Shown here: positions 2,751 to 26,164 of the stretch, piece by piece
How positions within the stretch are numbered: the first letter of the stretch is position 1
How the letters are laid out: each line of letters opens with the position of its first letter
IMG/VR virus record: IMGVR_UViG_2537561991_000013
Location: 1 to 26,414 of that record
DNA length: 26,414 nt
Reading direction: 5' to 3' (one strand)
Source of the DNA: a virus
Lineage: Duplodnaviria > Heunggongvirae > Uroviricota > Caudoviricetes
Notes under the pieces: model-generated
The model's database searches: none
Told to the model about the DNA's origin: nothing
The model's input: only the letters and a program-made list of their open reading frames with translations
Made by a program: the position numbers and the translations under genes

Positions 2751-2772
2751 CTGCCCCGTTTTAGCGGGGCAG
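2751..2772 (-). terminator. hairpin (CTGCCCCG-TTTTAG-CGGGGCAG), probable terminator of the GH13 fragment
   Basis: Perfect 8-bp inverted repeat with a 6-nt loop, 14 bp downstream of the minus-strand stop at 2786; the U-tract after it on the minus strand is imperfect. Confidence 0.4.
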
Positions 2773-2785
2773 ATATAACATTAAA

Positions 2786-3871
2786 TTACAAATAGAGATA
2801 GTTCAGCGGTTCTCCTGTTTTCCCTAAAAGAAGAGCGCTACGCCCAGGAATATTGATATTTAGAGTTCCGCCTCTAAGCATAAATGCTTTACCAGGGGGG
2901 ATAATTTTTCGGGTATTAATAATAATGTTAACGCTATTACTCCCCATGTTTTTATATTTTCCAGGTTGCAATTTGTTAGGCCAGGCACCTTCAACTTCTT
3001 CGTTTCCTTTATTTATTATAATTAGTCCATCATGAGGAGAGTGATTAATGTTCACAGAATCCCCACGACTAAAGGCCAGAACGTTTTTAGTTGCAAATAC
3101 ACCCTCAAATGCGCTCCATATTCCTGCTTTATCTATATATAATGCGTGGAATTCATTGTAGAGCTGCTGATAGGTAGAGCAACCTTTATTAAGCCACGCC
3201 TCATCGCCAACACGCGTCGACCCATCATAATTTTTAATTTCAGTCGTTGATTTTAATACTTGGCCATCCCAGTAAACTAAAGGCCTGCTGAACGGGAGAG
3301 CGGCCATATATGCCATTGCTAATTGTTCATCTTGTTGATGGTTAAATAGAAAGTCATTGAAAATATTGCCATTGTTAGGAAAATCGTGTTTAATGTTAAT
3401 CAATATCCGTCTTTTTGATGGGATGCTTGAGATTGTGGAACCCGGTTTTGATGCAAGGGTTTGGAGATCGCCACCAAATGAAAAAGCTTTTATCGTCTTC
3501 ATGAGCAATGAAAAATCAATGGCGCTTAAATCATCTCTTTCATAAAGCAGCGATGACATTTGTTCTTCATCCAACTGACAAGTTACCAGATATTCCATGT
3601 AATTCATAACGACTTTTTCATGATATTTTGGGTTAAATAAATTAGTATTGTGTAACCGCTCATTATAATTTTTAAGCGGTGGGGTTATTGATCTTTCTAT
3701 TTGTTCATGTTTTGAGTGTTTTGCTGCATCGTAACGTAAACCTCGTACGCCATATTTTCGCATTTCACGAACGTATTGATTTTGCAGCATAATAACCTGG
3801 TCACTTTTGGGGGTTGTTTTAGGCATTCCATTTAAACGCTTTTCTTTTAATGCATGGAGGTTTTCCCATTC
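2786..3871 (-). pseudogene. GH13 (alpha-amylase family) gene fragment, 5-prime end removed at the IS3 boundary (possibly the ygaQ locus)
   Basis: ORF 2786..3826 contains GH13 region II (GLRYDAAKH) about 30 aa from its start and a region-IV-like FLFNHQQD; the frame stays open upstream with no stop until the IS3 left end at 3872, so roughly 150-200 N-terminal codons are missing. Confidence 0.6.
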
Positions 3872-3936
3872 TGATCTTACCCAGCAATAGTGGACACGCG
3901 GCTAAGTGAGTAAACTCTCAGTCAGAGGTGACTCAC

Positions 3937-4236
3937 ATGACAAAAACAGTATCAACCAGTAAAAAACCCCGTAAACAGCATTCGCCTGAATTTCGCAGTG
4001 AAGCCCTGAAGCTTGCTGAACGCATCGGTGTTACTGCCGCAGCCCGTGAACTCAGCCTGTATGAATCACAGCTCTACAACTGGCGCAGTAAACAGCAAAA
4101 TCAGCAGACGTCTTCTGAACGTGAACTGGAGATGTCTACCGAGATTGCACGTCTCAAACGCCAGCTGGCAGAACGGGATGAAGAGCTGGCTATCCTCCAA
4201 AAGGCCGCGACATACTTCGCGAAGCGCCTGAAATGA
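3937..4236 (+). CDS. insE: IS3 OrfA (transposase N-terminal / HTH component)
   Basis: [32 protein letters not shown]... from ATG 3937 with AGAGGTG RBS; the ORF track starts at an upstream GTG at 3928. Confidence 0.85.
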
Positions 4237-5099
4237 AGTATGTCTTTATTGAAAAACATCAGGCTGAGTTCAGCATCAAAGCAATGTGCCGCGTGCTCCG
4301 GGTGGCCCGCAGCGGCTGGTATACGTGGTGTCAGCGGCGGACAAGGATAAGCACGCGTCAGCAGTTCCGCCAACACTGCGACAGCGTTGTCCTCGCGGCT
4401 TTTACCCGGTCAAAACAGCGTTACGGTGCCCCACGCCTGACGGATGAACTGCGTGCTCAGGGTTACCCCTTTAACGTAAAAACCGTGGCGGCAAGCCTGC
4501 GCCGTCAGGGACTGAGGGCAAAGGCCTCCCGGAAGTTCAGCCCGGTCAGCTACCGCGCACACGGCCTGCCTGTGTCAGAAAATCTGTTGGAGCAGGATTT
4601 TTACGCCAGTGGCCCGAACCAGAAGTGGGCAGGAGACATCACGTACTTACGTACAGATGAAGGCTGGCTGTATCTGGCAGTGGTCATTGACCTGTGGTCA
4701 CGTGCCGTTATTGGCTGGTCAATGTCGCCACGCATGACGGCGCAACTGGCCTGCGATGCCCTGCAGATGGCGCTGTGGCGGCGTAAGAGGCCCCGGAACG
4801 TTATCGTTCACACGGACCGTGGAGGCCAGTACTGTTCAGCAGATTATCAGGCGCAACTGAAGCGGCATAATCTGCGTGGAAGTATGAGCGCAAAAGGTTG
4901 CTGCTACGATAATGCCTGCGTGGAAAGCTTCTTTCATTCGCTGAAAGTGGAATGTATCCATGGAGAACACTTTATCAGCCGGGAAATAATGCGGGCAACG
5001 GTGTTTAATTATATCGAATGTGATTACAATCGGTGGCGGCGGCACAGTTGGTGTGGCGGCCTCAGTCCGGAACAATTTGAAAACAAGAACCTCGCTTAG
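4233..5099 (+). CDS. insF: IS3 OrfB (DDE transposase catalytic component; normally made as an OrfAB fusion by -1 frameshifting)
   Basis: 288-aa ORF recognised as IS3 InsF; overlaps the orfA stop in ATGA arrangement. Confidence 0.85.
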
Positions 5100-5250
5100 G
5101 CCTGTGTCCATATTACGTGGGTAGGATCACGCAGGGGTCGGCCCATTTGAGCTTCAGATAGGAACGTTTGAATTCCTTTCACAAAATACATCACATACTG
5201 AACGTGAACATTCCCACTTTGATCTTAAGGCCAAAAAGTATGCAGGACTA

Positions 5251-6969
5251 ATGATTTTTAGGGATAGCTTGAGAGTATTACCTTATGGTCGAGTAGATAA
5301 TGATTTCTTCCAGATAGAAGAAAGACGTTCATGGAATGCAGGGCGATATTATTGGTCTAATAGAAGGATTTTTGGTTATATTGGAATTACTCAATCCAGT
5401 AATAAAGAGCTGAAAGATAAGTCGGGGAGAGAGGGATTCATAAGAAACCAGGCTGCAAGAGAACTGAAAACTATTATATCTAATTTGTTAACTGAACTTG
5501 CTGATAGATTTTTTGGTTCACGTTCTGATGACCGTAAAGAGCTTTTAGAACAAGTTAAGCGTGAAAAAGAGTTAAGAAAATCTGCTCAACAACAAGCTCG
5601 AAAATCAACACAAAAAAGTTTTTCAGAAGCTTTGAAGAATCAGACACCAGTTCTTGATGCTTCCTTGGAGGCTGTTAAAAGGCTGAAAACTAAGCTTGAT
5701 AAAACTGATGGTTCGTTAGATTTAAACTATCTTAAAATTATAGACAGTGATCTTACAAACTTAGATGCGTTGCGCAGTGAAATTAAAACGCCTATCAAAC
5801 CTCCAAAACTTGGAATGTATGAAGAGAAATATAGAGACTACAGAGATAAATTTAATGAGTTCTCTGCGTATATTCTACAAATGAAGTTAGCAATTAATAA
5901 ACTTGATTCTGAATTAAATAAACTTGAGCCTTCATTGTCAGCGAAAAATCACCTTGAAAAAAATCAAGGTATTATTAATTCTAAACTAACTAAGTTTAAT
6001 AACACGATAGAGGAGAAGATACATTCTCTTTTAAAAAAATGGGCCGATGAAATAAAGGTTGATCGAAGTGATTATTATGCTAAAACTATATCAGTTGTTG
6101 ATTCAATAGATAATGATTCACAAATTGAAAATGTGTTTAATTTGCTCGATAGTTTATATGTTGAGTCAGTTGATACCCTAACTTTCAAATATCAATCAAT
6201 AATAAAAGGTCTCGATAGATTATTTGAAGGTATAAACTTAGATTCAGCATTCTCATTATCTGAAGAAGAACGCTCATATTTTGAAGAAAAAGCTAAAAGT
6301 TTAAACGCGCTTGCACAGTTAGGTATTAGTGTTGAGATAATATCTCATGAACTTGAAGAAATGGATTCTATGGTAACCAGAGGACTAAACTCTCTTCCTA
6401 CTTCTGTAAAAGAACACCCTGGTTTTTCATTGGCGTTAAATGCTCACAGATCGCTTACTCAACAAATACGTTTCTTATCACCTTTGAAAATATCAGGTTA
6501 TCAATCCAGGCAGAGAATAACTGGAAAAAATATCATGGATTATGTCCTGAAGTTCTTTGGGGAGCGTTTCGAACGGCAACGAATAACTATTGAATTTAGT
6601 GAAGAGTTTAAGCAAATCGCAATAACAGATATACCATCAAGGATCTATCCTGTTTTTACTAATATTATCAACAATGCAATGTATTGGGTCAGTCTGTCAA
6701 ATAATAGGCTCATAAAGATTGGTTTTGTGAATTCTTTGGTTATCATAGCAAATTCTGGTCCGGCAATTGATACCGATGATATCCCGCGACTATTTGAACT
6801 ATTTTATAGCAAAAGAGCAAATGGACATGGGGTAGGTCTGTATCTATGTCGAGAAAACCTTGCTGTTGCACATCATAAAATATGGTATTCAGAACCTGAT
6901 GAAGGCGATAACTATTTAATAAAAGATGACGCTAATTTTGTGATCCAGTTCAATGGAGTGGAGTTCTAA
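5251..6969 (+). CDS. cytoplasmic histidine-kinase-like protein: coiled-coil-rich N-region, DHp-like H-box and HATPase_c catalytic domain; frame is open upstream to the IS3 end (5130), so the true 5-prime end is probably deleted
   Basis: C-terminal motifs: H-box-like VEIISHELEEMDSMV, N-box YPVFTNIINNAMYW, G1-like IIANSGPAIDTDD, F-box RLFELFY, G2 GHGVGLYLCRENLA. No hydrophobic TM segment. Visibly AT-rich; weak SD before the ATG at 5251; no in-frame stop between 5130 and 5251. Confidence 0.7.
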   Translation: MIFRDSLRVLPYGRVDNDFFQIEERRSWNAGRYYWSNRRIFGYIGITQSSNKELKDKSGREGFIRNQAARELKTIISNLLTELADRFFGSRSDDRKELLEQVKREKELRKSAQQQARKSTQKSFSEALKNQTPVLDASLEAVKRLKTKLDKTDGSLDLNYLKIIDSDLTNLDALRSEIKTPIKPPKLGMYEEKYRDYRDKFNEFSAYILQMKLAINKLDSELNKLEPSLSAKNHLEKNQGIINSKLTKFNNTIEEKIHSLLKKWADEIKVDRSDYYAKTISVVDSIDNDSQIENVFNLLDSLYVESVDTLTFKYQSIIKGLDRLFEGINLDSAFSLSEEERSYFEEKAKSLNALAQLGISVEIISHELEEMDSMVTRGLNSLPTSVKEHPGFSLALNAHRSLTQQIRFLSPLKISGYQSRQRITGKNIMDYVLKFFGERFERQRITIEFSEEFKQIAITDIPSRIYPVFTNIINNAMYWVSLSNNRLIKIGFVNSLVIIANSGPAIDTDDIPRLFELFYSKRANGHGVGLYLCRENLAVAHHKIWYSEPDEGDNYLIKDDANFVIQFNGVEF

Positions 6970-6970
6970 T

Positions 6971-8719
6971 ATGACAGTGGCAAATTATAATTCTCTTGTC
7001 CAGAAAACTTTCTGCGAAAATGCAATTCGTTCCGTTGTCATGATTGATGACGATTTTCTGACGTATTCTGAATCAATCAGGGCGTTGAATAACGAAGTTG
7101 ATTTAGACTACAACAAAATTGACTCATCTAAACGAGCCGCTACTCTTGAGAGCTTTTTTCAATCTAAAAATATGATTTGTGATGTTGACAATGGTTCTGT
7201 TAATTTCGATGTGGATCGGATTAGAAAATCAGATCTTATTATTGTAGATTATCATCTTGATAATAATGCACCTGATAAAACACTTAAACTATTACAAGAT
7301 TTGAAAGACTCCGATCATTTAAATATGATTGTAATATATACTAGAGAGAATTTAGAAACGGTTTGGATGCAGATATCATCGACTCTCAAAGGTGCTCTGG
7401 ATATCAACAGCTTGATCATTGACTACGATAATGAAGATGTCCAAAGTTATTGGGAAGACGTTGTATTACCGAACTTAAATGATAATGGTAATAAAGCTCT
7501 CACAAGAGATGAAACAATAGCCTATATTAAAGACAGTAAGCCTTGTAGAAGAATTAAAAGATTAATACATGATGATGCTGTGTTGGAGGAACAAAAGGAT
7601 AAAAACTTCATTGCAAAAATGATTGCAGAATATGCTGTGTCTAGAAATGCAATTATTTCTAGCAACACATCTGGCAATGTCATTCGGGGTGATGAAAGCG
7701 GAGTAAAATGGATTCAATGTGGTAATATCTTTGTCTCCCTATTTCATAAGGTTCAAGATGATCATGAAAACGATGGAGATAGGATTTGGCAAACTCTCAA
7801 TGATTCTCTCATTGAATGGAAACCATCTTATTATCAGTTAATAAAATCTGAAATTCAGAATGCAATCGAAGCTGAGGCTTTATCTTTTGTAAATCATTTG
7901 GCTAACGATCATTACGGTCAAGCTGCGTGGTTAAATGAGATATTAAAATCAGACTCGCCTGATATTAGATGTAGAAATATTGACTTTGTATTTGGTAATT
8001 TATCAGAAGAGCTTTATCAAAGACTTAAAAATAATAATACGCTGGATGAATTTATCAAAAGTGTTTTTGATAGCTATTCAAATGAATACGCTAACAGCGG
8101 AGTTGCTGCATTGCTCCAATATTGCTCTTCAAAAATGGATCTGCCATCAAATAATGATACTTATCACGAAATGTATCATGCTTTAAATATGAATTTGTCT
8201 TCAAAGAATTTTGAAGATGGTCATATTTCTACTGGCACTATTTTCTTTGATACAGAGTCGAACAAATGGTATTTATGTGTATCTGCGGCATGTGATTTGG
8301 TTCCTACTCAGGGTAACGACCCTCACCATGTAAGATTAAGTCCGCACAGGCTCATTAAAGTTCTGGAGCTTTTTAACGCCAGTCAGAGTAAAGCATTGCC
8401 ATTTGCTGAACATTCGAAATATATATATGTAATGCATAAAAATCAAAGAAAATATCTCTCTATTTTCGAAGGGGATAAAACGCTTCCTGTTGTTGATTAT
8501 ATGGTGGTGTTGAATCATGGAACAACAGTTGATGGCGAAGAAAAAAATATTATTTCTGCCGTGTTTTTAAGTAATATGGATGGCAACGTGCAAAATGTTC
8601 CTGTCCGACTCAAACTTAAATCTCAACTGAGAACTGGTTATGCAGAAAGATATCAGGCTATAGCGTCTCAGTATAGCTCAAGGATTGGTGTGGATTATGT
8701 ATCAATGATGCTACCATAA
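6971..8719 (+). CDS. receiver (REC)-like N-terminal domain fused to an unassigned ~430-aa C-terminal domain
   Basis: ATG at 6971 is 1 nt after the kinase stop, with GGAGTGGAG as SD (the ORF track starts at 6953). N-terminus has REC-like beta1 VVMIDDD, beta3 DLIIVDYHLD, beta4 MIVIYT; the rest has no motif I can assign. AT-rich like the upstream gene. Confidence 0.55.
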   Translation: MTVANYNSLVQKTFCENAIRSVVMIDDDFLTYSESIRALNNEVDLDYNKIDSSKRAATLESFFQSKNMICDVDNGSVNFDVDRIRKSDLIIVDYHLDNNAPDKTLKLLQDLKDSDHLNMIVIYTRENLETVWMQISSTLKGALDINSLIIDYDNEDVQSYWEDVVLPNLNDNGNKALTRDETIAYIKDSKPCRRIKRLIHDDAVLEEQKDKNFIAKMIAEYAVSRNAIISSNTSGNVIRGDESGVKWIQCGNIFVSLFHKVQDDHENDGDRIWQTLNDSLIEWKPSYYQLIKSEIQNAIEAEALSFVNHLANDHYGQAAWLNEILKSDSPDIRCRNIDFVFGNLSEELYQRLKNNNTLDEFIKSVFDSYSNEYANSGVAALLQYCSSKMDLPSNNDTYHEMYHALNMNLSSKNFEDGHISTGTIFFDTESNKWYLCVSAACDLVPTQGNDPHHVRLSPHRLIKVLELFNASQSKALPFAEHSKYIYVMHKNQRKYLSIFEGDKTLPVVDYMVVLNHGTTVDGEEKNIISAVFLSNMDGNVQNVPVRLKLKSQLRTGYAERYQAIASQYSSRIGVDYVSMMLP

Positions 8720-8789
8720 TTATTATATTTTAGGCGTGGTGATTTTTTTCGCCATGCCTATTTTATATTTATCATCACAATGATGTTGT

Positions 8790-9101
8790 TTATTTTTGTT
8801 TAAGTCTTCTAAGCTTCATGCATTCTAATGAGAATAATAATAGAGTTGTGCTGTATATAAAGCCAGAGTTAGTTAATAACTTTAAATTTAATGCTTCAGG
8901 ATTTTCACTGAGAAAGTGAAAGGCATAAACTAAGTATACAGCTAAAGTAGCCGTTCCAATTGTTGGTCCAATATCGCCTTGATCATGAGGTTCAAGGTTT
9001 ACATTGAACTTGAAGATTAGCCATTCAAATCCCCAAGTAAAAAAAACAACTAATATCATGGCTGCGAATAATTTCGCGATGTTATCTGCTGATGGATTCA
9101 T
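8790..9101 (-). CDS. small hydrophobic protein (about 3 predicted TM segments), function unknown
   Basis: 103-aa ORF with three hydrophobic stretches (LFAAMILVVFFTWGF..., IGTATLAVYLVYAFHFL, FIYSTTLLLFSL); convergent with the kinase/receiver operon, AT-rich. Confidence 0.4.
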   Translation of the reverse strand: MNPSADNIAKLFAAMILVVFFTWGFEWLIFKFNVNLEPHDQGDIGPTIGTATLAVYLVYAFHFLSENPEALNLKLLTNSGFIYSTTLLLFSLECMKLRRLKQK

Positions 9102-9243
9102 CAGAACAGATTGTTTCTGAAAAAATTCACAAAGTGAGAGTCCGAAAAAAATAAAAAAAGTGGTCTGGAACTAAATTTTTCAAAAACTTTGAATAGGGTT
9201 TCCATTTTCTTTACCTTCAGGATTATATTAGCTATTCTGATAC

Positions 9244-10473
9244 TTAGGCTACCAGAGCATTTGATCTTTGAGCTTGAACGTAATCACTCCACCATTGCAT
9301 CAAACTCTGTCGCTCTATCAGATATTCTGCACGATTGTATGCTGCGATAATTTCATCTTTTTTCGAGTGGGCAAGCGCTGCCTCAAGAACTTCAGCTCTG
9401 AATTTACCAGACTCCTCTGCCGCTGTTCGTGCAATAGAACGCATACCGTGAGCTACAAGCTCGCCTCCGAACCCCATTCGGATGATAGCTGCGTTGGCTG
9501 TTTGTTCATGCATATGATTAAGAGGCGCTTTTATGCTGGGGAAAACCCATTCTCTATGCCCACTTATTGATTTCATTAATTCAAGGATGCGCAAAGCTTC
9601 TTTACTCAAAGGAACTTTGTGAAGCTTTTTCATTTTCATGAAATCAGCAGGAATGTTCCAAATGCTGTTGGTTGTATCAATATCAGACCACCTTGCGCGA
9701 ACGGCTTCACCCGGACGAACCCATGTCAACAATTGCCATTCAATTAGCATACGTGTTTCCAACCGGATTGACGCATTCGTCAAAGATTCCATAAACCTTG
9801 GCAATTCGCTTGGGGGAAGGGCAGGCATATTTTGCTTTTTTGGTTTACTGAATCTTTGACCAAGGTTGTCAGCCGGGTTGAACTCAATAAGTTCTTCAGT
9901 AGCTGCCCACCGGAAGATTTCATTCAGACGTGAAATGATACGGCGTAGAGTTTCCAATACGCCTCGTTGCTCAATAGGATCAAGGTGTTGTTTTAAGAGC
10001 TTAGGTCGGATCTCATTGATAGGGACATTACCCAGACCGGGAAAGACATTTCTCTCTAAGCTGCGCCAGATGTCTGCTGCATGGTCTTGTGAGATACCTG
10101 ATGTCTTTACCTTCTCATCTAACCATTTCCGCGCTACGGCTTGGAGAGTGTGCTCAGTAGCACTCTTTAATGCCTTCGCCTTATCGTTGTTATGGATTTG
10201 GGGATCAACACCATTTGCCAGAAAGGAGAGATATTCATCACGTAAGGCTCTGGCTCTTGCAAGGGTAAGGTGAGGATATGTCCCAAGGCTCATTTTGGTT
10301 CTTTTCTTGCTCACTGGTACTGCATACCTGAAATACCAATTTTTCTTGCCTCCTTTCGCCAAAGGAGCGATTCGTAGAATCAGACCATCACCGTCAAACA
10401 AGTTGATTTCTTTATCGGCTGGCTTGGTGCTTTTGATTTCAGTGTCAGTGAGCTTCTTAGCGATTTTTGCCAT
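9244..10473 (-). CDS. P4-type tyrosine integrase (CP4-57 IntA-like)
   Basis: ORF 9244..10515; likely start at ATG 10473 (MAKIAKKLTDTEIK...) with GAGGG RBS; C-terminal tyrosine-recombinase motifs (HGMRS...LAH...AAYNRAEY); sits 165 bp from the ssrA 3-prime fragment in the same orientation, as ssrA-intA does in K-12. Confidence 0.85.
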   Translation of the reverse strand: MAKIAKKLTDTEIKSTKPADKEINLFDGDGLILRIAPLAKGGKKNWYFRYAVPVSKKRTKMSLGTYPHLTLARARALRDEYLSFLANGVDPQIHNNDKAKALKSATEHTLQAVARKWLDEKVKTSGISQDHAADIWRSLERNVFPGLGNVPINEIRPKLLKQHLDPIEQRGVLETLRRIISRLNEIFRWAATEELIEFNPADNLGQRFSKPKKQNMPALPPSELPRFMESLTNASIRLETRMLIEWQLLTWVRPGEAVRARWSDIDTTNSIWNIPADFMKMKKLHKVPLSKEALRILELMKSISGHREWVFPSIKAPLNHMHEQTANAAIIRMGFGGELVAHGMRSIARTAAEESGKFRAEVLEAALAHSKKDEIIAAYNRAEYLIERQSLMQWWSDYVQAQRSNALVA

Positions 10474-10575
10474 TTTGGGACCCTCGGTTTTTGGACCCTT
10501 CTTAGTGGGTCCCATTCAGGGTGCCATAACTCGTAGTTCTCAGCAATTCTCACTGGACGACAATAGACGTAAAAA

Positions 10576-10608
10576 AGCCCGCAGAGCTTGTGCTGTGTGG
10601 GCTTAGTA
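10576..10608 (-). terminator. weak hairpin with U-tract between the att fragment and the integrase
   Basis: AGCCCGCA...TGTGGGCT inverted repeat (one mismatch) flanked by an A6 run on the plus strand (U-run on the minus strand). Confidence 0.3.
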
Positions 10609-10638
10609 GACTTCATTGAACTTCAAACAACTAAAAAG

Positions 10639-10674
10639 TGGTGGAGCTGGCGGGAGTTGAACCCGTATCCGAAA
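10639..10674 (-). other. partial copy of the 3-prime end of ssrA (tmRNA): att-type junction, not a functional tmRNA gene
   Basis: TGGTGGAGCTGGCGGGAGTTGAACCCGtaTCCGAAA is the reverse complement of the tmRNA 3-prime end (...GGACGCGGGTTCAACTCCCGCCAGCTCCACCA) with 2 mismatches; the match stops after ~36 nt and the rest of ssrA is absent. Confidence 0.75.
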
Positions 10675-10868
10675 AATTCTTAACCAATTGAATATTAATG
10701 ATTTTTCTAATTTAAAATACCTCACGTGCATTTTACGTGCATATTGTAGTACCTCTAACGTCCTGATTCTGTCCAACATTTTGAAGTGTTTAGGCGCCAC
10801 TGGGGCGGTGATTAGCGCTGTTTTGTGCTGTTCATAGCACTTCAAGACTATTCAATTCAGAGCAATCG

Positions 10869-12170: not shown

Positions 12171-13349
12171 TCACTTCTTCATTCCAGATTCCATTGCGGT
12201 TTTCCCGTCGTATTCAGCCAGGTATTTACCGTAATTGCGGAACAGCATTTCCGGCCCCTTATGCCCCATCTGCCCGGCAAGCCAGAAAAGGTTTACACCC
12301 TGGCTAATGTGTCTGGTGGCGAATGTGTGGCGCGTCTGGTACGGGTTACGGTAGCGCACACCAGCTTTTTTCAGGGTCGGCACCCATGCTTTTTTACGGA
12401 TAGCGTCGGCGTTCGTCCAGGGATCTCCCGTTTTCGGATCGCTGAATATGAACTCACTTTTCATAAAGGTGTATTGCTTCTGCGCCTGCAGGGCCGCCAG
12501 CGCCTCACTGTTCAGCTCCACCTTACGGGTACCGGCTTTTGTCTTGGTGCCTTTAAGTACCCCTACGACACTGGCCGCCTGTATGTGCGCTGTATTACCT
12601 ATAAAGTCGATATCGGTCCAACGTAATGCGCATAGCTCAGAGCTGCGTAGCCCTGTATTGAAGGCGAAGCGGAACAGATTCTGCCATTCCTGATACTTGC
12701 AGTGCTGATATATGGCACTGGTTTCCGCAGGCGCAAACGGATCAACTTCGTAATCGTCGGCGTTCGGTTTACTGTCGACCACGTGATACCGGCTGGCGCT
12801 GACAAGAGTTACCGGGTTAATAGTCAACAGGCCATCAGTTACAGCCTCATCAATGGCGCTGCGCAGAAATGACAGGTTATTCCTGATTGTTTTCAGCTTA
12901 GTTTTTCGGCTGGCTATCCAATTTTTTAGTACCGCAGGCGTCAATTCTGTTACATGTAGTTTATGTAGTTCTGATAGTGCTGATAGACATTTTTCGTAAC
13001 CGCCAATGGTTGACGGCGACAGATTGCGGTTCATGCAAATTTTCAGGTATTCATCAAGATAGGACTTAATATTTTTGGTTTTCTTTACTACACCGAATAA
13101 CTCCAGTTTTTTGGAACTGGGGAAATATTTCGCATATTCAAACGTTCCGCTGGCGATCTGATTTTGTATCTCCCCTAGCAGGCGCTCAGCATATTTAATA
13201 CCACGTGTATTTGCCTCAAGCCGAGACAGGGGCTCCCTGCAAAGAACCCCTTTATATGTGAAAGTGATAACTAGTGTTGAAGCAGTTTTATGCTTACGAA
13301 TAGTTACTCCTCTTGGCAGAGATAATAATCCTTGTTCTTTCTTGCCCAT
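12171..13349 (-). CDS. lambdoid-phage tyrosine integrase (not lambda Int)
   Basis: 392-aa ORF from ATG 13349; C-terminal catalytic motifs RHTFATRH...GHKGPEMLFRNYGKY; an overlapping excisionase-like gene lies upstream. Confidence 0.85.
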   Translation of the reverse strand: MGKKEQGLLSLPRGVTIRKHKTASTLVITFTYKGVLCREPLSRLEANTRGIKYAERLLGEIQNQIASGTFEYAKYFPSSKKLELFGVVKKTKNIKSYLDEYLKICMNRNLSPSTIGGYEKCLSALSELHKLHVTELTPAVLKNWIASRKTKLKTIRNNLSFLRSAIDEAVTDGLLTINPVTLVSASRYHVVDSKPNADDYEVDPFAPAETSAIYQHCKYQEWQNLFRFAFNTGLRSSELCALRWTDIDFIGNTAHIQAASVVGVLKGTKTKAGTRKVELNSEALAALQAQKQYTFMKSEFIFSDPKTGDPWTNADAIRKKAWVPTLKKAGVRYRNPYQTRHTFATRHISQGVNLFWLAGQMGHKGPEMLFRNYGKYLAEYDGKTAMESGMKK

Positions 13350-13513
13350 TTTGAAACCTCTATTAAGTCGACCCAGCGTTCTTTAACTCCGTCGACTTTT
13401 AATACATGAACCCCTTCTTTCCATATTCCTCTTTGTATCCGTTTGTTAACGGCATCAACCGTTTCTCCCGCGTCGCGGCAGTAGGTTGATATAGGCACGC
13501 AATCCAGCCCCAT
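13304..13513 (-). CDS. excisionase-like small DNA-binding protein
   Basis: 69-aa ORF overlapping the integrase start by 46 bp (typical xis-int arrangement); basic, with W/K-rich C-terminus. Confidence 0.5.
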   Translation of the reverse strand: MGLDCVPISTYCRDAGETVDAVNKRIQRGIWKEGVHVLKVDGVKERWVDLIEVSKWARKNKDYYLCQEE

Positions 13514-13671
13514 ACATCACCTCACATAACACTCAGCCCACGGCAGTGGCACCACACGTCAAACATTCGCTTCACAACTTCACGACAGTAGAAGCCGTCA
13601 ACATCTCGCGTCAGGTTATAGCGATTGCCGTAACGCTGGTGGACCCATTGTTCAAATGCTTTATTCATTCT

Positions 13672-13950
13672 TTACTTCCTTTTTATGGCTCGTAATTTTT
13701 TCAGGTGCTTTTCCTGCTCAGTGTCCGCGAGAATTTTGCGGTACTCCTGGTGGTCAATATGTTCGAACAGGCAGTTTAACTCACCAATGCGTACCCGCCC
13801 GGATCGTCCGTCCATCCGTCGAAAGAACACTGAGTGCTCAGTGATGCGAGTAATCACCACGGGGTATCCGGCTCTGTCCGTGTATATCTGACCGCGTTGA
13901 ATCAAAGCGAACATGTGGTTATCCCCATCGACAAATTGAGAACACAACAA
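13672..13950 (-). CDS. hypothetical small phage protein
   Basis: 92-aa ORF in the leftward early operon; no motif assigned; start codon uncertain. Confidence 0.4.
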   Translation of the reverse strand: MLCSQFVDGDNHMFALIQRGQIYTDRAGYPVVITRITEHSVFFRRMDGRSGRVRIGELNCLFEHIDHQEYRKILADTEQEKHLKKLRAIKRK

Positions 13951-14037
13951 ACGCTACTGCGAATACCACCCCCAGAGTTACGATTGCATCAGGCCAGCTC
14001 ATTGATTCACCTCCTGCGGCGTCCTGGTATTCGATTT

Positions 14038-14606
14038 TCATTCCGGATGCTCCTGAGCCACATTGAAATCGCCATGATCACGACAAGGCATCACAACAAA
14101 TTCAGGATTGCCATACATTGAGTTGATGATGGAATCAAACTGAATTCTGACCGCTTGCCCGTCACCGGAGGAACGTAACTGGACGGGAATAAATTTACGC
14201 TCACGACCAAACATCTTCTCTGGATAACTCAGGTAACCCGCCTGGATCACCGGGTGTGTACAGAGGTCAAATTTTTTCGGAATGATGCGTTCCAAATCCG
14301 GAAAACAACCGTCCACCAATTTAATGCCGGTAATGGACAGCCGGCGCTGAAACTGGTCGCGATGAACAGGATCGGCTCTTTACTAAAAATCAGCTCTGTC
14401 GTTTCGGCTTTGGCCGGGACGCCACCTTCGAACTGGACAATGATGTTTTTCTTCGTCCGGATGCCGTGAGTCATGCGCAGTGCTACGAAACCATTGGTTG
14501 CCTCAATATGTTTTGGCGTGATGTGAAGACCGTTCAGGTAATAACGAACGTCGTTTTTAGCAGCGCACACCAGAGCGGCGCGAATAAGTTTTGACTGGAT
14601 GATCAT
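14038..14606 (-). pseudogene. DNA polymerase III beta-clamp (DnaN)-like gene split into two overlapping frames (frameshift or authentic disruption)
   Basis: ORF 14247..14606 has KNDVRYYLNGLHI...EATNGFVALRM (compare DnaN QDVRYYLNGMLFE...VATDGHRLAV); ORF 14038..14319 in another frame has VDGCFPDLERIIPKK (compare DnaN VDGRFPDYRRVLPKN). Together they are about half the length of cellular DnaN. Confidence 0.5.
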
Positions 14607-15352
14607 GCTTTATCCTCCCATCCGATTACCTGAAAAAGCCCCATCTTCGGGTGATACCAGCGTGTGCCGCGTGGTTCAGCCTCTGACATCATTTGGTGGA
14701 ACGCCGCCATAAATGTCTCAAGCTCGACGACAGCCCTGCGAGACAACAGACCGTCCGGAGTCATAAATTCGTGCGTGTCGGTAGGGATGTGGTAGGCGTT
14801 GACCAGATTCCGACACTTGGCGTCACTCATTCCGCTTTTGGCTACCACCTGGCGGTAACCGACATATCCGGTGCGCATTGTGCCGCGTTTGATGTTCTCC
14901 ACAGCTTTGGTGACCGTTTCGATCTTCTCTTCAACATGACTCAGGCGCTTCTGCTGGCGAACGGCATCGGCGGCCATTGCAGCGATCATCTCCATTTCCG
15001 TCAGCGGCGCGTGAGTTCGGAAATAGCTGTTAACCAGTTCGCGCTGAACCTGCCATGCAAGAGCATCGTTAAAAGGCTTCGTCAACATCAGGTAACCAGA
15101 CTCGAAAAGAATGATCCCTTTGGCAGTTCGCGCGGCAAAGGCATCAGAAAGTGACTCCGTACGTATTACGTCCGCAGTCATTTCAAGAAAATCCACCCCT
15201 TCGATAAAGTGAGAACGGTTGCGGTTAAACGCAGCACGGGCGGTACCTTCCGGGCGCTGGTGGACGTCATCAATTATTGCAAATGTCACAACACGCTGAC
15301 CGCGATATTCGATTACCGGAAACTGTTTGTTGTTGATGGTTACAATATTCAT
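14603..15352 (-). CDS. phage ORF6N-domain protein (antirepressor-like)
   Basis: Start at ATG 15352 (MNIVTINNKQF...) with GGAGAT RBS; N-terminal segment VVTFAIIDDVHQRPEGTARAAFNRNRSHFIEGVDFLEMT resembles the ORF6N signature (RN...F.EG.DF..LT); the domain assignment is from memory. Confidence 0.5.
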   Translation of the reverse strand: MNIVTINNKQFPVIEYRGQRVVTFAIIDDVHQRPEGTARAAFNRNRSHFIEGVDFLEMTADVIRTESLSDAFAARTAKGIILFESGYLMLTKPFNDALAWQVQRELVNSYFRTHAPLTEMEMIAAMAADAVRQQKRLSHVEEKIETVTKAVENIKRGTMRTGYVGYRQVVAKSGMSDAKCRNLVNAYHIPTDTHEFMTPDGLLSRRAVVELETFMAAFHQMMSEAEPRGTRWYHPKMGLFQVIGWEDKA

Positions 15353-15395
15353 TTTTATCTCCAGACAGCCCGGCGTGTAATACCGGGCATATGTA

Positions 15396-16223
15396 TTACT
15401 TAACCTGAATAAATGGTGTGTTGGCACCGCTGGTCATGTATTGCGGCAGTGTACCGTTCCACTTGTTGATGGCTTCCAGCTCCATAACACCGGGGTTCTG
15501 GCGCAGAGCTTCACCGCGTAAACGAATAGCATCGGCTTCGGCCTGGGCTTTTGTGCGAATCGCATCTGCCTGTCCGGCAGCTTCCGCGCGCAACATGTTG
15601 GCTTCCGCTTCGCGCTGTTTTACTTCCTGCTCGCGTTGCAGGGTTTTCTGGTTCGCCGTGACTTTGGCATTAATGCTGTCGATAACAGTAGGTGGGTACT
15701 CCGGCTTACCCACATATGAGAGGCTCATTACCTGAATACCGATGGGCGTCATTTCTTCCTGAATGTCTTTAAGAGCTGCATCCAGCAGCTCAGACTTGCC
15801 GCCGTCGATAAATTTGTCGGTGGTCATTTTGCTGGCCAGTCGGTTGAGTGCGTCGGCTATCTTCTGGCGCAGGTCGGTGTCGGTAATGTCGTCCACGCCT
15901 TTGCGGTAGGTCTGAAAGACTGTGGTAACTTTGGATGGATCAACTTTGTAGGCCACGCCGATGTGATAGCCGATGGTTGTACCGTCACTCATCTGGAAAC
16001 TGAATGGATCATCGTAGGTCTTCATCTGCTTAAAGGTCGGGAAGATGTAAACCTCAGTGTTCCATCCCGTCCAGTAGCGCCCAACACCGACCACTTCACC
16101 GACGCCTTTATCGTCGCCCAGTTTGTTTACTTTGATGCCCACATTACCAGGCTCAACGCGATCGCAACCGACAAGGCCAATGGTCGGCAGAACAAGGGCT
16201 AAAGCAAAAAGTAATTTTTTCAT
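15396..16223 (-). CDS. SPFH/band-7 (prohibitin-like) lipoprotein
   Basis: Signal peptide with lipobox (MKKLLFALALVLPTIGLVGC), SPFH-like core and an Ala/Glu-rich coiled-coil C-terminus (AEANMLRAEAAGQADAIRTKAQAEADAIRL). Confidence 0.6.
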   Translation of the reverse strand: MKKLLFALALVLPTIGLVGCDRVEPGNVGIKVNKLGDDKGVGEVVGVGRYWTGWNTEVYIFPTFKQMKTYDDPFSFQMSDGTTIGYHIGVAYKVDPSKVTTVFQTYRKGVDDITDTDLRQKIADALNRLASKMTTDKFIDGGKSELLDAALKDIQEEMTPIGIQVMSLSYVGKPEYPPTVIDSINAKVTANQKTLQREQEVKQREAEANMLRAEAAGQADAIRTKAQAEADAIRLRGEALRQNPGVMELEAINKWNGTLPQYMTSGANTPFIQVK

Positions 16224-16408
16224 CTTTTATCCTTAGAAAAAGAAAGACCCTTATAAATGGCATAAATGCAGGGCGGGGTCAGACACGCCAGAGCAAAGCC
16301 AGAAATCACTGCTACCGTATCCTTCATTGATATGAGGGCCGGAACGATTAATCCGTAAATACATGTGATAATTGCCAGTGATATAACTATTCTGAAATAA
16401 ATGTTCAT
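16220..16408 (-). CDS. small membrane protein (2 predicted TM), translationally coupled to the SPFH gene
   Basis: 62-aa hydrophobic ORF whose stop overlaps the SPFH start by 4 nt. Confidence 0.45.
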   Translation of the reverse strand: MNIYFRIVISLAIITCIYGLIVPALISMKDTVAVISGFALACLTPPCIYAIYKGLSFSKDKR

Positions 16409-16468
16409 GGTCCTCCTGATGTATTCGGCTTGCCTTATTTAATTGCGTCATGGTTAATTTCGTTTACG

Positions 16469-16861
16469 TCAGAATGGTTTTGTTGCCATCAGTTCGTAAT
16501 ATCCGGCGCTCCATGTGTCATATTTTCTGAACCATTTTTCTGTATACTGTTTCCTGGCGATGAGTCTGCGCAGTCGTCTGATTGTTCGCTGGTGTGCGCG
16601 GGTATACTCTGTGGTTGATTCTCCACGTTTCCATATCTCATTCCTGTTGAAGATAAAACGCTTGTCAGGATAGCGTTGTCGGAATCCTGAACGTTCAAAA
16701 GCGCGGGTGGTCATAAAGAATGCCAGGTAACGAATTGCCGTTTTTCGGGTGAGGCATTTTTTTGTTCTTCCGTGGCGTGTTACAAAAAATAACGGGCCGA
16801 CGGGTGTATCATGTTTCTGTAATGCCTGGTCAATGGTGCTGGCGGTGCGGTTGTCGATCAT
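16469..16861 (-). CDS. hypothetical basic phage protein
   Basis: 130-aa ORF, Arg/Lys-rich; no motif assigned. Confidence 0.4.
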   Translation of the reverse strand: MIDNRTASTIDQALQKHDTPVGPLFFVTRHGRTKKCLTRKTAIRYLAFFMTTRAFERSGFRQRYPDKRFIFNRNEIWKRGESTTEYTRAHQRTIRRLRRLIARKQYTEKWFRKYDTWSAGYYELMATKPF

Positions 16862-17076
16862 TTCTTTATTTCTCCCGAATAACGTTCATGACTCATTACT
16901 TCCCAGTTCCGGCCGTCGTCTTTCGATAACAGCCGCCAGCGACGGTTAACCTTCAGACTGAGATATCCGGTGCGCTGTATCCGATGCGGAAATATCCGTC
17001 GGCATCGGTACAACAACAGGACCTGCAATGCCTGCCGGTGGATCCGCTCAGGAATGCGTGTTGCTGTTAATGCCAC
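16858..17076 (-). CDS. hypothetical small protein
   Basis: 72-aa ORF overlapping the downstream start by 4 nt; overlaps 17048..17263 in another frame, so one of the two may be spurious. Confidence 0.3.
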   Translation of the reverse strand: MALTATRIPERIHRQALQVLLLYRCRRIFPHRIQRTGYLSLKVNRRWRLLSKDDGRNWEVMSHERYSGEIKK

Positions 17077-17263
17077 CGGTTTCCTCCTGAGCAGGTGCTG
17101 TTATCTGATACCCCGCTCTTTCTGCCAGCCGTATGAATGTATCCATGCTGGCAATCAGCTCGCCATCGCGGACTTTGCAGACACCTGTGACTTGGCCATT
17201 TTCAATTGTCATAACGATCTGCACTTTTTCGTGCACAACAGATACAGGGGATAAATTAGCCAT
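17048..17263 (-). CDS. hypothetical small protein
   Basis: 71-aa ORF, start/stop coupled with 17263..17622. Confidence 0.35.
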   Translation of the reverse strand: MANLSPVSVVHEKVQIVMTIENGQVTGVCKVRDGELIASMDTFIRLAERAGYQITAPAQEETGGINSNTHS

Positions 17264-17622
17264 CAGTTAATTCCTCCGCTGATATATTTTTCTTTCGCGT
17301 AATCAATAATCTCTTGAAAAAGGTTGTCTATAATTAACTTTCCGGTTTCAGTCAGGTATTCAGTATGTTGATTAATCCCGATAGCATTCTGGTATGCAGT
17401 GTGGATTTCGGTTTCACCCTCCACCCGGCCCAATTCACCACGGGTAATACCTTCGAAGCGTAACAGCAACTGGTTTATAAACTGTTCAGTTATTTCTATG
17501 GTCGTAATGTTCCCATCAGGAAGGTCAACAATAAGCAGATTACCACCTGTTTTACGTTTTATTCGATGGAGTGCCGCAACAGCTATACGGCGACGATATG
17601 TATTAATGGGTTCATGTGTCAT
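17263..17622 (-). CDS. hypothetical phage protein
   Basis: 119-aa ORF in the leftward early operon. Confidence 0.45.
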   Translation of the reverse strand: MTHEPINTYRRRIAVAALHRIKRKTGGNLLIVDLPDGNITTIEITEQFINQLLLRFEGITRGELGRVEGETEIHTAYQNAIGINQHTEYLTETGKLIIDNLFQEIIDYAKEKYISGGIN

Positions 17623-17806
17623 TTGTTATTTCCCGTATGCTTTCCTGAGAAACAGTATTGCAACTGACCAGTATCCTGCATTAGCCATTAATAATGCGGT
17701 TTTATAAGCACTTCTGTTTTTCATGCATCACCACCATTTTCAGGTTGTGGAAATTCCCGACCAGAGACCGTTATGTTTTTATGGGTGATTGTTTATTGAG
17801 TTTTCT

Positions 17807-17998
17807 TTATTCGTTGCGCAGTGTGTCGATATACGCGTAAGCCATTTCACAGGTTTTATTCATGGAGCGAATGAGGCAACATAAATAATCGTCTGTCTCT
17901 CCTGAGTCGGGCGAATTCTTAAATATAAATTCAAGCATTGATGTATTCTCTTTTATTTGTGCTGCCACTTCCTCAAGAATATTTAATGGAGTTTTCAT
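17807..17998 (-). CDS. hypothetical small protein
   Basis: 63-aa ORF, stop/start overlapped with 17995..18219. Confidence 0.35.
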   Translation of the reverse strand: MKTPLNILEEVAAQIKENTSMLEFIFKNSPDSGETDDYLCCLIRSMNKTCEMAYAYIDTLRNE

Positions 17999-18219
17999 GT
18001 TCTTTGCTCCTTAAATGCATCGCATGCGCTTCTGGCGTATTGTTGTGCCAGTAAAAAGATATCATCCGAAAGTTCATCACATTCTTCATCACCGGAAGCC
18101 GAAATGATTAACCCCGCTTCAAGCAGTACGGCAATGTGATGAAAAGTTGTCTCCGGTTCGTTGGTAAGGCCTTTGAACATTTTCATCTTATGCTTCCTCC
18201 TGATTTTGTTTATAAGCAT
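17995..18219 (-). CDS. hypothetical small protein
   Basis: 74-aa ORF between the HTH gene and the 63-aa ORF. Confidence 0.35.
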   Translation of the reverse strand: MLINKIRRKHKMKMFKGLTNEPETTFHHIAVLLEAGLIISASGDEECDELSDDIFLLAQQYARSACDAFKEQRT

Positions 18220-18607
18220 CAGTCAATAACAACATTGGATCACAGCCAAGAACATTAGCCAGAGGGATAAGCATGCTGATGGTTGGTTCGTACTCTCCGC
18301 TCTCCCACTGGATGATAATTTCTTCATCGAGATCGAGCAGCCTAGCGAGTTCGGCGGTTGTTAAGCCGCAGGTTTCGCGTTGGGTGCGAATCCGATTCTG
18401 GGAATTAATAGCTAAATTTTGTTTGCATAAACGTGACGCGGTGAGGCTATATTTTTGAGTTACAGCCAGGATGGAGCTGGCAAGTTCAATTAACTCAGGG
18501 TTATTGCTGCTATACAGTAGTGCACCAGTCCCTACTAAGAGCTGAATATTCTCAAGAGCATCGTGCTGATTTGTTGGTAATCCCATATACGATGACATTT
18601 TTCTCAT
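18188..18607 (-). CDS. HTH (XRE-family) DNA-binding protein, first gene of the leftward early operon
   Basis: C-terminal half has an XRE-type HTH (GLTTAELARLLDLDEEIIIQWESGEYEPTISMLIPLANVLGCDP); CGATAAA-type half-sites lie in its upstream region (18640..18690). Confidence 0.5.
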   Translation of the reverse strand: MRKMSSYMGLPTNQHDALENIQLLVGTGALLYSSNNPELIELASSILAVTQKYSLTASRLCKQNLAINSQNRIRTQRETCGLTTAELARLLDLDEEIIIQWESGEYEPTISMLIPLANVLGCDPMLLLTDAYKQNQEEA

Positions 18608-18696
18608 CCTCTATAATTGCTTTGGTGAGTTCGATACCTATGTCAAGATAATAGGTTTACCGATTTCACCTGTCAATCGGTTTATCGATTTTTTCC

Positions 18697-18723
18697 CAAA
18701 AAAAAGCCCACTTAAGAGTGGGC
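18697..18723 (-). terminator. intrinsic terminator of the repressor gene (GCCCACT-TAAG-AGTGGGC with U-run on the minus strand)
   Basis: 7-bp stem preceded on the plus strand by A9, i.e. a U-tract after the hairpin on the minus strand; 19 bp downstream of the cI-like stop. Confidence 0.6.
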
Positions 18724-18741
18724 GGGTTAAATGATTTTTGC

Positions 18742-19434
18742 TTATGCAAAACGGTGTAGTGTCATAGGCCAACTGACAATTACTTTTCCGTCAATGTGAA
18801 GTTGTTCGAAGTCTTCCGGTTCGATAGCCCAATCCTTGTAAGCTGGGTTGTCAGATATCACCGTTAGAGTATCTTTGATTTTTTGAAGTCTTTTGATGTG
18901 CGATGTTCCAGAGTATGTAAAGGCGTATATACCATCACCATTAAATGTGCGAACTGATACATCTACAAATACCAAGTCTTCAGGGTCTATTGTGCCTTTC
19001 ATACTGTCGCCGTGGGCGTTTATTGCTTTGATTGCTGATGCTGGTCTGCCGCCAAAAACTCTTGATGCGTATCCTGGTTCTATCGCTATAGATCTGACAA
19101 TATCAGGAAAATCAGAGTTATAACTACCAGGTCCGCAACTATATCTGATGTCTAAAACATCCACGACATACGAATCAGTAACCCAATCTTCAGAAATGTT
19201 ACGTATTTGGTGTGAGTCTGCAGAGGTCACGATTTCCATTGGGCCAACACCCGATGCGAGCCATTCCGGGTTAACGCCCAAAACTTTTGCTATTTCGACT
19301 GTTTTTCTGGAACCGTTGGCTTTGTTAAGTAGTTGATTAACACTGGACTGAGCCATACCCACTTCTTTGGCCAGCCTACCTTGCGTAAATTTTGCGTTGC
19401 GCATAGCTAAATCAAGTCGTTCTGAAAATGTCAT
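18742..19434 (-). CDS. CI-like prophage repressor (N-terminal XRE HTH, C-terminal S24 LexA-like peptidase domain)
   Basis: 230-aa ORF; N-terminal HTH (FTQGRLAKEVGMAQSSVNQLL), C-terminal GDSM serine motif and downstream lysine; divergent from a Cro-like gene. Confidence 0.8.
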   Translation of the reverse strand: MTFSERLDLAMRNAKFTQGRLAKEVGMAQSSVNQLLNKANGSRKTVEIAKVLGVNPEWLASGVGPMEIVTSADSHQIRNISEDWVTDSYVVDVLDIRYSCGPGSYNSDFPDIVRSIAIEPGYASRVFGGRPASAIKAINAHGDSMKGTIDPEDLVFVDVSVRTFNGDGIYAFTYSGTSHIKRLQKIKDTLTVISDNPAYKDWAIEPEDFEQLHIDGKVIVSWPMTLHRFA

Positions 19435-19466
19435 TGCGATTTTCCTCCCCTCTCTATCTTGGCTAG

Positions 19467-19486
19467 TTTATCGGCTTTCCGATAAA
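19467..19486. promoter_or_regulatory. operator-like palindrome TTTATCGG-CTTT-CCGATAAA in the cI/cro intergenic region
   Basis: Perfect 8-bp inverted repeat with a 4-bp spacer between the divergent repressor and Cro-like genes; related CGATAAA half-sites recur at 18640..18690. Confidence 0.5.
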
Positions 19487-19553
19487 TATTCTATGTTTAA
19501 CGTTGAATATCGCTTTTCCTGTTGTTATTATGCGTTCAATAGGAGATGCGATT

Positions 19554-19841
19554 ATGAAACATAAAGCCATAGAGAAAGCTATTGAGATTCTTGGAAGTCA
19601 GCAAGCCTTAGCCAAGCGATGCGGAAAGGCCCAGTCAACAGTCTGCGATTGGTTGAACTGCAAGAACAAGATTTCACCAGAATTTGTGCCGTTATTGGTT
19701 GCAGCTGTCGACGGAAAGATCCAAGCGTATGAATTTCGGCCAGACCTACCAGAGCTTTTTCCACATCCAAGCTTAGCGCGCACGGGGGAGGTGAAGGGCT
19801 TGTATGTCCCAGAATTACGTTCAGACAGAGATGCCATCTAG
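19554..19841 (+). CDS. Cro/YdaS-like small HTH regulator
   Basis: ATG at 19554 with AGGAG RBS at 8-nt spacing (ORF track starts at 19503); MKHKAIEKAIEILGSQQALAKRCGKAQSTVCDWLN... is an HTH; divergent from cI. Confidence 0.6.
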   Translation: MKHKAIEKAIEILGSQQALAKRCGKAQSTVCDWLNCKNKISPEFVPLLVAAVDGKIQAYEFRPDLPELFPHPSLARTGEVKGLYVPELRSDRDAI

Positions 19842-20112
19842 GTACTGCCAGGCAGACGAAGAGTGGATTCAGCAGCAGTTACAGGGGCTGCCTCCGTCAC
19901 TGAGACGGAAGGTTGCCCTGAAATATGCGGAGGTATACGAAATCACTTTTGACGCTGAGCCTGTTTCATTCCGCAAGGAGAACAGAGCAAGGCACGAAGC
20001 AAACACAAGGCTCCGCCTGTTTGTAAGAAATCAGGGCAGAGCTTTACAGGGGTATACAGCCGAACCTCCCCTGGCTGGATCGCAATCGCGCTCCTCACTG
20101 TTTCGGGTTTAA
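19804..20112 (+). CDS. hypothetical protein in the cII position; possibly a remnant
   Basis: 102-aa ORF overlapping the Cro-like gene; no motif assigned; followed by ~780 bp with no credible ORF. Confidence 0.3.
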   Translation: MSQNYVQTEMPSRYCQADEEWIQQQLQGLPPSLRRKVALKYAEVYEITFDAEPVSFRKENRARHEANTRLRLFVRNQGRALQGYTAEPPLAGSQSRSSLFRV

Positions 20113-21218: not shown

Positions 21219-21689
21219 TTATTTTATCAGAAGTTAATTATCACTCTGTTGCTATTCAGTACATCCCTGCAGGGTAAAGTCTTGTTTCGCCGGATATGAA
21301 GATGAAATATTGTTAGAAGACAGTAGCTACCGGTTCCTGTAACCGAACGTTCATTTCTCGTTATTTTTCATGCTGGCCGGGCGCAGGTGCTTTGCATCTG
21401 TTGCCAGCCTTCTCCTGCAGGCTTCAATAACCCATGCCGAAAAATTACCCGATCCCTTACGTTCAAGGGCAATATGGATTTGATTAATCATCTGGTTTGG
21501 GAAGCTTTATTTTTTGATGACATTGTGTTTTTCCGTGTTCAGTGCTGCTGATTTGTATTGTCTTAAGATGTCTTTACGTTAAGTTGACACAGATCAATTA
21601 ATGCATGACTTGGACAAAATTGATTATTTGTCGTGGTTTTATGGTGTACGTGGGATGTGTGATGGTATTTATATAAATGATAATTATTA

Positions 21690-22463: not shown

Positions 22464-26144
<3,681 letters not shown>

Positions 26145-26164
<20 letters not shown>

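Follow-up and report, generated by a model that had tools for sequence, protein, structure and literature searches.

The gene pair considered here, at positions 5130-8719 of a 26,414-nucleotide stretch of DNA filed as IMG/VR virus record IMGVR_UViG_2537561991_000013 (the whole stretch being the window in what follows, identified by an open reading frame (ORF) and domain survey as Escherichia coli chromosome), encodes a histidine-kinase-like protein and a receiver protein. Its closest described relatives are kinase-receiver pairs whose defining domains, HEF_HK (PF19191) and Response_reg_2 (PF19192), were introduced by Bellieny-Rabelo, Pretorius & Moleleki (2021, Genome Biol Evol, PMC8011034), who first noticed the family through its up-regulation in Pectobacterium under infection stress, described it in silico alone, found restriction-modification (R-M) genes enriched around it and left the domain at the C-terminus of the receiver protein unanalysed. 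MORC and paraMORC GHKL ATPases, a second point of comparison, have been linked to R-M systems (Iyer, Abhiman & Aravind 2008, PMC2292703), and the Detocs phage defence system consists of DtcA, DtcB and DtcC, a TPR kinase, a buffer receiver and an effector that is mostly a PNP protein (Rousset et al. 2023, bioRxiv 10.1101/2023.01.24.525353). Both exact RefSeq proteins of the pair are listed as 'Predicted novel defense gene' in Table S5 of DefensePredictor (PMC13092281, 2026), with log-odds of 12.05 for the receiver (WP_000214990.1) and 6.64 for the truncated kinase (WP_000577254.1). The family is already known, through its Pfam entries and the 2021 paper, and the DefensePredictor listing names the very proteins of this pair as defence candidates; the initial annotation of the window, made from the letters alone, had allowed for a distinct two-gene variant or an unrelated signalling module, but the pair is not an unrecognised one.

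The locus is the IS3-truncated remnant of a conserved trio of methylase, double-ATPase kinase and receiver that is carried on islands and integrative and conjugative elements (ICEs). We consider it likely that the pair is the right-hand remnant of a mobile unit encoding a C5 DNA methyltransferase, a 988-residue soluble kinase and a 582-residue receiver protein, the intact trio being proposed to sense DNA or infection and release an effector. The remnant is laid out as follows.

3872-5129, + strand: IS3, 1258 bp, left boundary of the remnant, with orfA at 3928-4236 and orfB at 4233-5099
5130-6969, + strand: 3' fragment of the kinase gene (gene 1), codons 377-988, placed by DNA alignment to the intact gene of locus L002
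6316-6492, + strand: HEF_HK (DHp) domain with the H-box SHELEE (Pfam PF19191)
6634-6909, + strand: HATPase_c domain with N, G1, F and G2 boxes (Pfam PF02518)
6971-7819, + strand: REC domain (Response_reg_2) of gene 2, interrupted by a helical insertion
7823-8719, + strand: residues 285-582 of gene 2, the C-terminal output region
8731-8760, + strand: terminator-like hairpin directly 3' of the gene 2 stop, with a 12-bp stem and a T run, found by pattern scan as a consensus match alone

The terminal repeats of IS3 can be read directly (TGATCTTACCC... and ...GGTAGGATCA), RefSeq labels the element IS3 in an identical locus, and identity with the intact gene of L002 starts at 5130, the first base after IS3, so that the removal of the 5' end by IS3, which the initial annotation had suspected, is borne out to the base. 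The element is flanked by TTC on the left and CGC on the right, without a 3-bp target duplication, which suits a deletion associated with IS3 better than plain insertion of the element. Alignment with intact relatives demonstrates that this deletion took the methylase gene and kinase codons 1-376, that is, the whole first ATPase. The intact homologues of gene 1 in Salmonella, Klebsiella and Serratia are 988 residues long, 99% identical and equipped with an extra N-terminal HATPase_c_3 domain, and the 376 residues missing from the window kinase hold the GHKL motifs I-III (ELWKNAYDA, DNGCGM and GEKGIGRLS). Since the lost part held this GHKL ATPase, the coiled-coil-rich N-region of about 370 residues described for gene 1 is just the back half of a larger sensor region of about 770 residues, the lost half being a second GHKL ATPase. 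No C5 methylase was found in the window by the ORF and domain survey. The DNA to the left of IS3 is an alpha-amylase-C pseudogene and not island DNA; this, together with the lack of a target duplication, indicates that the IS3-mediated deletion probably took the whole left part of the island, which in L002 includes the methylase, a relaxase and extra recombinases.

The native arrangement can be seen in L002, where a C5 cytosine methyltransferase gene (PF00145, E 6.6e-59; PADLOC MTase_II; motifs GGPPCQGFS and ENV) overlaps the kinase start, the receiver gene begins 1 nt past the kinase stop, and a small ORF, the same integrase as in the window and smpB follow. The trio is also present on an ICE of Citrobacter, on one island each of Acinetobacter and Salmonella, and in a metagenome contig whose receiver protein is only 25% identical. 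A neighbourhood scan of one genome per species, in which ORFs were scored with hidden Markov models (HMMs) built here, covered 62 loci, 53 of them informative in having enough flanking sequence. Methylase, kinase and receiver are co-stranded in 45 of the 53, a further seven have the kinase-receiver pair followed directly downstream by a convergent methylase, and one lacks the methylase, which is thus directly adjacent in 52. The N-terminal GHKL match on the kinase is present in all 53, although in one the kinase is split over two ORFs. A Vsr-type mismatch endonuclease, the usual companion of C5 methylases, is the only other recurrent neighbour (23 loci), and no conserved helicase or recognisable endonuclease emerged from the scan; compared with a type II R-M system, the intact loci conserve the methylase without conserving a recognisable endonuclease. 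The setting, on islands and ICEs that carry integrases and relaxases and beside HNH/ScoMcrA neighbours, speaks for a defence context, as do the DefensePredictor log-odds and the R-M enrichment reported around the family. A neighbourhood survey for intact copies and a third gene had been proposed at the outset; both were found, and the unit to consider is one of three genes, not the two-gene operon or variant first described, with a kinase that carries an N-terminal MORC-like GHKL domain. The reported association with C5 methylase, Vsr and HATPase_c_3 (PMC8011034) is hereby reproduced on independent loci.

Several individual loci deserve mention. The 'group 2' architecture, which lacks HATPase_c_3, is taken as natural in PMC8011034, whereas here one such kinase is a truncation and another has a mis-called start, the Salmonella kinase of L010 (3984-6983), annotated with 572 residues, being an intact 999-residue ORF. 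The '572-aa' kinases of other genera were considered as a natural short isoform and this candidate was rejected on the one locus checked, L010; going by that single case, annotation artefacts or truncations may account for some of the kinases listed as lacking the N-terminal ATPase. In Methylobacter tundripaludum (L047, 2765-6984) the kinase is split into an N-terminal piece at 2765-3241 and a remainder at 4258-6984, which suggests an independent disruption of the gene. Genes for HNH_2 endonucleases lie a few genes from the trio in Acinetobacter (L007/L008, 11060-11881) and Salmonella (L010, 9775-10650), the latter also with a ScoMcrA-type DNA-binding domain, and may be separate methyl-dependent restriction enzymes on the same island.

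Within the remnant, the frame of gene 1 is open from 5131 to the TAA at 6967-6969, its first ATG lies at 5251, and the longest ATG-started ORF (5251-6969) encodes 572 residues; gene 2 begins with the ATG at 6971, 1 nt past the gene 1 stop, and ends at 8719 after 582 residues. These positions and the spacing agree with those first given, as does the AT-richness of the pair, its GC content being 34.2% against 54% in the flanking chromosomal genes. Gene 1 matches HEF_HK with 26.3 bits (cut-off 24.1, E 1.1e-5) and HATPase_c with E 3e-11, and the candidate phospho-histidine is encoded at 6346-6348, corresponding to H782 in full-length numbering. Across 52 full-length kinases, each of a different species, conservation of at least 95% is found in the kinase core for H782, E783, N887, N890, N891, G919, F931, F934, G941, G943 and G945, which covers the N, G1, F and G2 boxes, and in the first ATPase for E32, N36 and D39, for D61, G63 and G65, and for G104, K106, G107 and G109. 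Neither gene 1 nor gene 2 contains a transmembrane-like stretch (maximum Kyte-Doolittle means over 19 residues of 1.38 and 0.96). The histidine-kinase core, the lack of a membrane segment and the receiver at the start of gene 2 (Response_reg_2, E 3.6e-31) all stand as first annotated, and the Pfam check of kinase and receiver domains, named beforehand as a possible refutation, supports both. Judging by its conserved residues, the pair is a soluble kinase and receiver-effector with predicted catalytic and phospho-acceptor residues intact. It belongs to the same family as the HEF_HK/Response_reg_2 pairs: both Pfam models score over their cut-offs, the two genes stand side by side in one orientation, the kinase is soluble, and the His and Asp/Asp/Thr/Lys residues are likewise kept; it departs from the predominant 'group 1' architecture, with its N-terminal HATPase_c_3, in having lost that domain and the methylase through IS3. 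No specific NCBIfam or PADLOC family was found for either whole protein, the generic matches to histidine kinase ATPase domains falling far under curated cut-offs, and the sole PADLOC-DB v2 matches at E <=0.1 were PD-T4-6 (0.029) and C3a59 (0.0026).

The receiver fold of gene 2 spans approximately residues 1-283, with the helical insertion placed between beta4/alpha4 and beta5, and its key residues are D26, D27, D88, D93 (the acceptor, codon 7247-7249), T124 and K260. Among 105 receiver proteins that are 20-36% identical to the gene 2 protein, D93, T124 and K260 are conserved in 100%, D88 in 99%, D26 in 98% and D27 in 87%. Because the receiver fold reaches this far, the unassigned output of about 430 residues in the initial annotation shrinks to about 300, although the observation that it matches no family holds: Pfam gives no match for the last 298 residues. 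Modelled alone, residues 285-582 form a helical bundle and, after it, a beta-rich domain, with good support (predicted local distance difference test 85.8, predicted template modelling score 0.85). A search of the PDB sequence set with a receiver-protein profile returned nothing under E 0.9, and Foldseek found no structural match for the output domain (best E 0.012, template modelling score about 0.1). A PD-(D/E)xK or HNH nuclease and a deaminase-like Zn site (H403, C436, C441) were both rejected for want of a structural match, H403 and D442 being less than 85% conserved across the wide family, and a resemblance to the MazF/Kid/CcdB toxin fold is a weak lead, a small MazF/Kid alignment giving a probability of 0.2% when compared profile to profile. 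No recognisable nuclease or toxin motif appeared in the library scans (Pfam, PADLOC, NCBIfam) or in Foldseek. In the wide family P285, N406, G422, C441 and R571 are 100% conserved, and G573, D575, C436 and R560 are 92-97% conserved, a pattern that looks like that of an active or ligand-binding site. A profile of the output region retrieved 648 cluster representatives among 1.8 billion proteins; in the best 150 of these 648, the proteins of about 550-680 residues all carry the region at approximately residues 260-650 behind the same REC domain, shorter ones look like fragments, and no other architecture was seen. The receiver protein does not carry a DNA-binding output as in canonical transcriptional two-component systems, and the pair is not of the transcriptional, vertically inherited housekeeping type that had been named as another possible refutation.

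The intact kinase begins with a MORC-like GHKL ATPase, continues through a middle and coiled-coil region and closes with a DHp domain, which bears the phospho-histidine, and a histidine kinase ATPase. For the intact module we propose a pathway in which host DNA would be marked by the methylase and unmarked incoming DNA, or another infection cue, would be sensed by the MORC-like module. Sensing would then lead to autophosphorylation at His782 and passage of the phosphoryl group to Asp93 of the receiver, and phosphorylated Asp93 would free the C-terminal domain to act as a toxic or nucleolytic effector built around Asn406, Cys441 and Arg571. The likeness to MORC and paraMORC proteins lies in the N-terminal GHKL motifs I-III of the intact homologues, which on mobile islands are linked with C5 methylases and with Vsr; the paraMORC families of PMC2292703, however, pair with helicases or carry fused nucleases, whereas here the GHKL domain is fused to a histidine kinase that would signal to a receiver protein, and neither a helicase nor a recognisable endonuclease is conserved. 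In the literature on MADS and on paraMORC/Shedu, no tie to a methylase-kinase-receiver trio was found.

Four points weigh against this account of the trio and its remnant. Phosphotransfer, DNA sensing and toxicity of family members are what we infer from sequence. Two related units from other E. coli strains in Table S6 of DefensePredictor, 2CM2 (a 607-residue Response_reg_2 protein and a 989-residue ATP-binding protein) and 2CMP (the receiver protein of 2CM2, with two ATP-binding proteins entered for the kinase), were scored 'defensive' = FALSE against 24 phages in MG1655 (PMC13092281). The product lists of 2CM2 and 2CMP contain no methylase, and the authors state that some negatives may need system boundaries redefined (PMC13092281). 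Both remaining ORFs in the window are still open in hundreds of genomes, which makes a residual function possible, and the contrast between synonymous and non-synonymous changes described below comprises 24 substitutions in total, some of which may predate the truncation. Three other readings, each less likely than that of a remnant of the trio, have to be weighed with these points in mind.

The most probable of them is that the remnant still works as an orphan pair, in which the 572-residue kinase initiated at ATG 5251, perhaps transcribed from or through IS3, phosphorylates the receiver-effector in a residual or rewired defence or stress role, and we regard it as unlikely. Of the 5426 complete E. 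coli genomes, about 560 (~10%) contain the pair at >=99% identity, all of the copies chromosomal, none found on plasmids, and no additional divergent copies were detected in complete E. coli genomes by blastn with the pair. Both ORFs are intact and the copies 99.8-99.9% identical across these genomes, with the H-box, the ATP-binding boxes and the receiver residues all in place, and DefensePredictor scores both genes as defensive; yet such near-identity suits recent common descent better than selection, and several genomes carry additional IS insertions in the pair. Relative to the intact L002 allele, gene 2 has 12 synonymous and 2 non-synonymous changes, which would fit a retained function, whereas in the kinase fragment 4 are synonymous and 6 non-synonymous (Fisher p 0.03), a contrast in small counts that gives a hint of relaxed constraint on this fragment. 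The region is no richer in promoter-like sites than shuffled sequence and has none between IS3 and ATG 5251, the presumed sensor and the methylase are gone, and, as already noted, 53 of 53 informative loci of other species keep the N-terminal GHKL match. Megablast finds the missing methylase and 5' kinase DNA in none of the 5426 complete E. coli genomes, and in NZ_CP027368.1, the one matching genome whose annotation was inspected, IS3 lies directly upstream as in the window. The E. coli copy, without the self-marking enzyme and the presumed sensor, most likely no longer works as a methylase-kinase-receiver system.

Some records of the remnant are irregular. In NZ_CP027766.1 (H118) the match starts at query base 59 and abuts the annotated alpha-amylase pseudogene, suggesting that a further deletion took IS3 together with 58 bp of the remnant. 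The contig L011 (DAIPZW010000118.1), 5.6 kb long and assigned to a Bacteroidales metagenome-assembled genome, begins about at the end of IS3, and its receiver protein and that of gene 2 are 100% identical; it is probably a mis-binned E. coli contig. Two genomes labelled 'DH5alpha' (NZ_CP026085.1 and NZ_CM135829.1) also bear the remnant, and, as in K-12 strains the CP4-57 prophage occupies ssrA instead, these labels may be wrong.

Slightly less probable than the orphan pair, and in our judgement doubtful, is a regulatory circuit of an R-M system or mobile element, with the pair controlling methylase expression, maintenance or transfer and the C-terminal domain serving as a binding or regulatory output rather than a toxin. 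The tight operonic linkage to the methylase, often with Vsr, would agree with it, as would the lack of a recognisable nuclease or toxin motif, the first sighting of the family as genes up-regulated in Pectobacterium under infection stress, and the finding that a cloned related pair gave no phage defence in the DefensePredictor work.

PADLOC-DB v2 includes Detocs models. That the pair is a divergent two-gene Detocs member, a relation raised by the initial annotation, is very improbable and is rejected on the lack of a PADLOC match (none at E <=0.1 to any model PADLOC names as Detocs) and on gene content, for although the logic is similar, with a soluble kinase and a receiver fused to a non-DNA-binding output on an accessory island, and plausibly, by analogy, autophosphorylation feeding a fused effector through the receiver in a defence island, the window and the related loci examined have no stand-alone buffer receiver of the DtcB type, the sensor of intact homologues is not TPR but a MORC-like GHKL ATPase, the output has a fold unrelated to the PNP ATP nucleosidase or other known Detocs effectors, and the obligatory third gene is a DNA methylase, implying an epigenetic self-marking that Detocs is without.

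If the remnant-of-trio reading is taken further, it is possible, though tentative, that the intact trio represents a new class of immune system in which a MORC-like ATPase reads DNA methylation and a His-Asp phosphorelay activates a previously unseen effector fold with the invariant residues Cys441, Asn406 and Arg571; the published negative would then have failed as the methylase or the sensor context was left out. A bolder addition would have the effector of the E. coli remnant still working and in use. Were the new class real, the trio would join R-M-type epigenetic self-marking with Detocs-type phosphorelay-gated effectors, so far separate, and would add an effector fold without a characterised relative. 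What is added here to the known family is the definition of the three-gene unit, a nearly novel effector fold along with the residues invariant in it, and an account of why the published assay may have been negative. The family is an attractive experimental target, and the widespread E. coli copy, as a relic, is a poor test object.

The remaining features of the window place the remnant at ssrA, as follows.

185-2555: lhgO and glaH, chromosomal genes
2786-3826: alpha-amylase-C pseudogene, AT-rich (37.8% GC), left of IS3
8790-9206, - strand: small hydrophobic ORF accompanying this island allele, outside the conserved core
9244-10515, - strand: P4-type tyrosine integrase (Pfam Arm-DNA-bind_3, Phage_int_M, Phage_integrase)
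10639-10730, - strand: partial ssrA (tmRNA) match (Rfam tmRNA, 18.6 bits, below gathering, E 2.5e-5)

An ssrA-associated island with a P4-type integrase had been recognised from the outset, and the integrase and partial tmRNA match uphold it; the integrase gene adjoins ssrA/smpB in L001 and L002. ARAGORN finds no full tmRNA in the window, and because of this result, the partial tmRNA match and the presence of a second integrase and prophage, two elements are read as standing in tandem at ssrA, the partial match at 10639-10730 being the attachment-site remnant between them and the complete ssrA gene being located beyond the window. The small hydrophobic ORF has 138 residues in L002, L010 and L001 (the one other E. 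coli genome whose annotation was inspected), whereas here its first ~35 codons are interrupted by stops, leaving a 103-residue ORF at 8790-9101, and homologues were found in just 6 of the scanned loci. Adjoining the tmRNA remnant, between the two integrated elements, is a partial Rfam match to the Salmonella island small RNA IsrM (10571-10648, - strand; 53 bits, E 1.3e-13), far under its gathering score of 376. The second element, in tandem with the island at ssrA (12171-26414), comprises a tyrosine integrase gene (12171-13349) and a lambdoid prophage with a CI-like S24 repressor (18742-19434), terminase gpA (22438-24363) and a lambda-type portal (24563-26164), and the prophage also bears an ORF6N-domain gene at 14603-15427 and an SPFH/Band 7 gene at 15396-16223.

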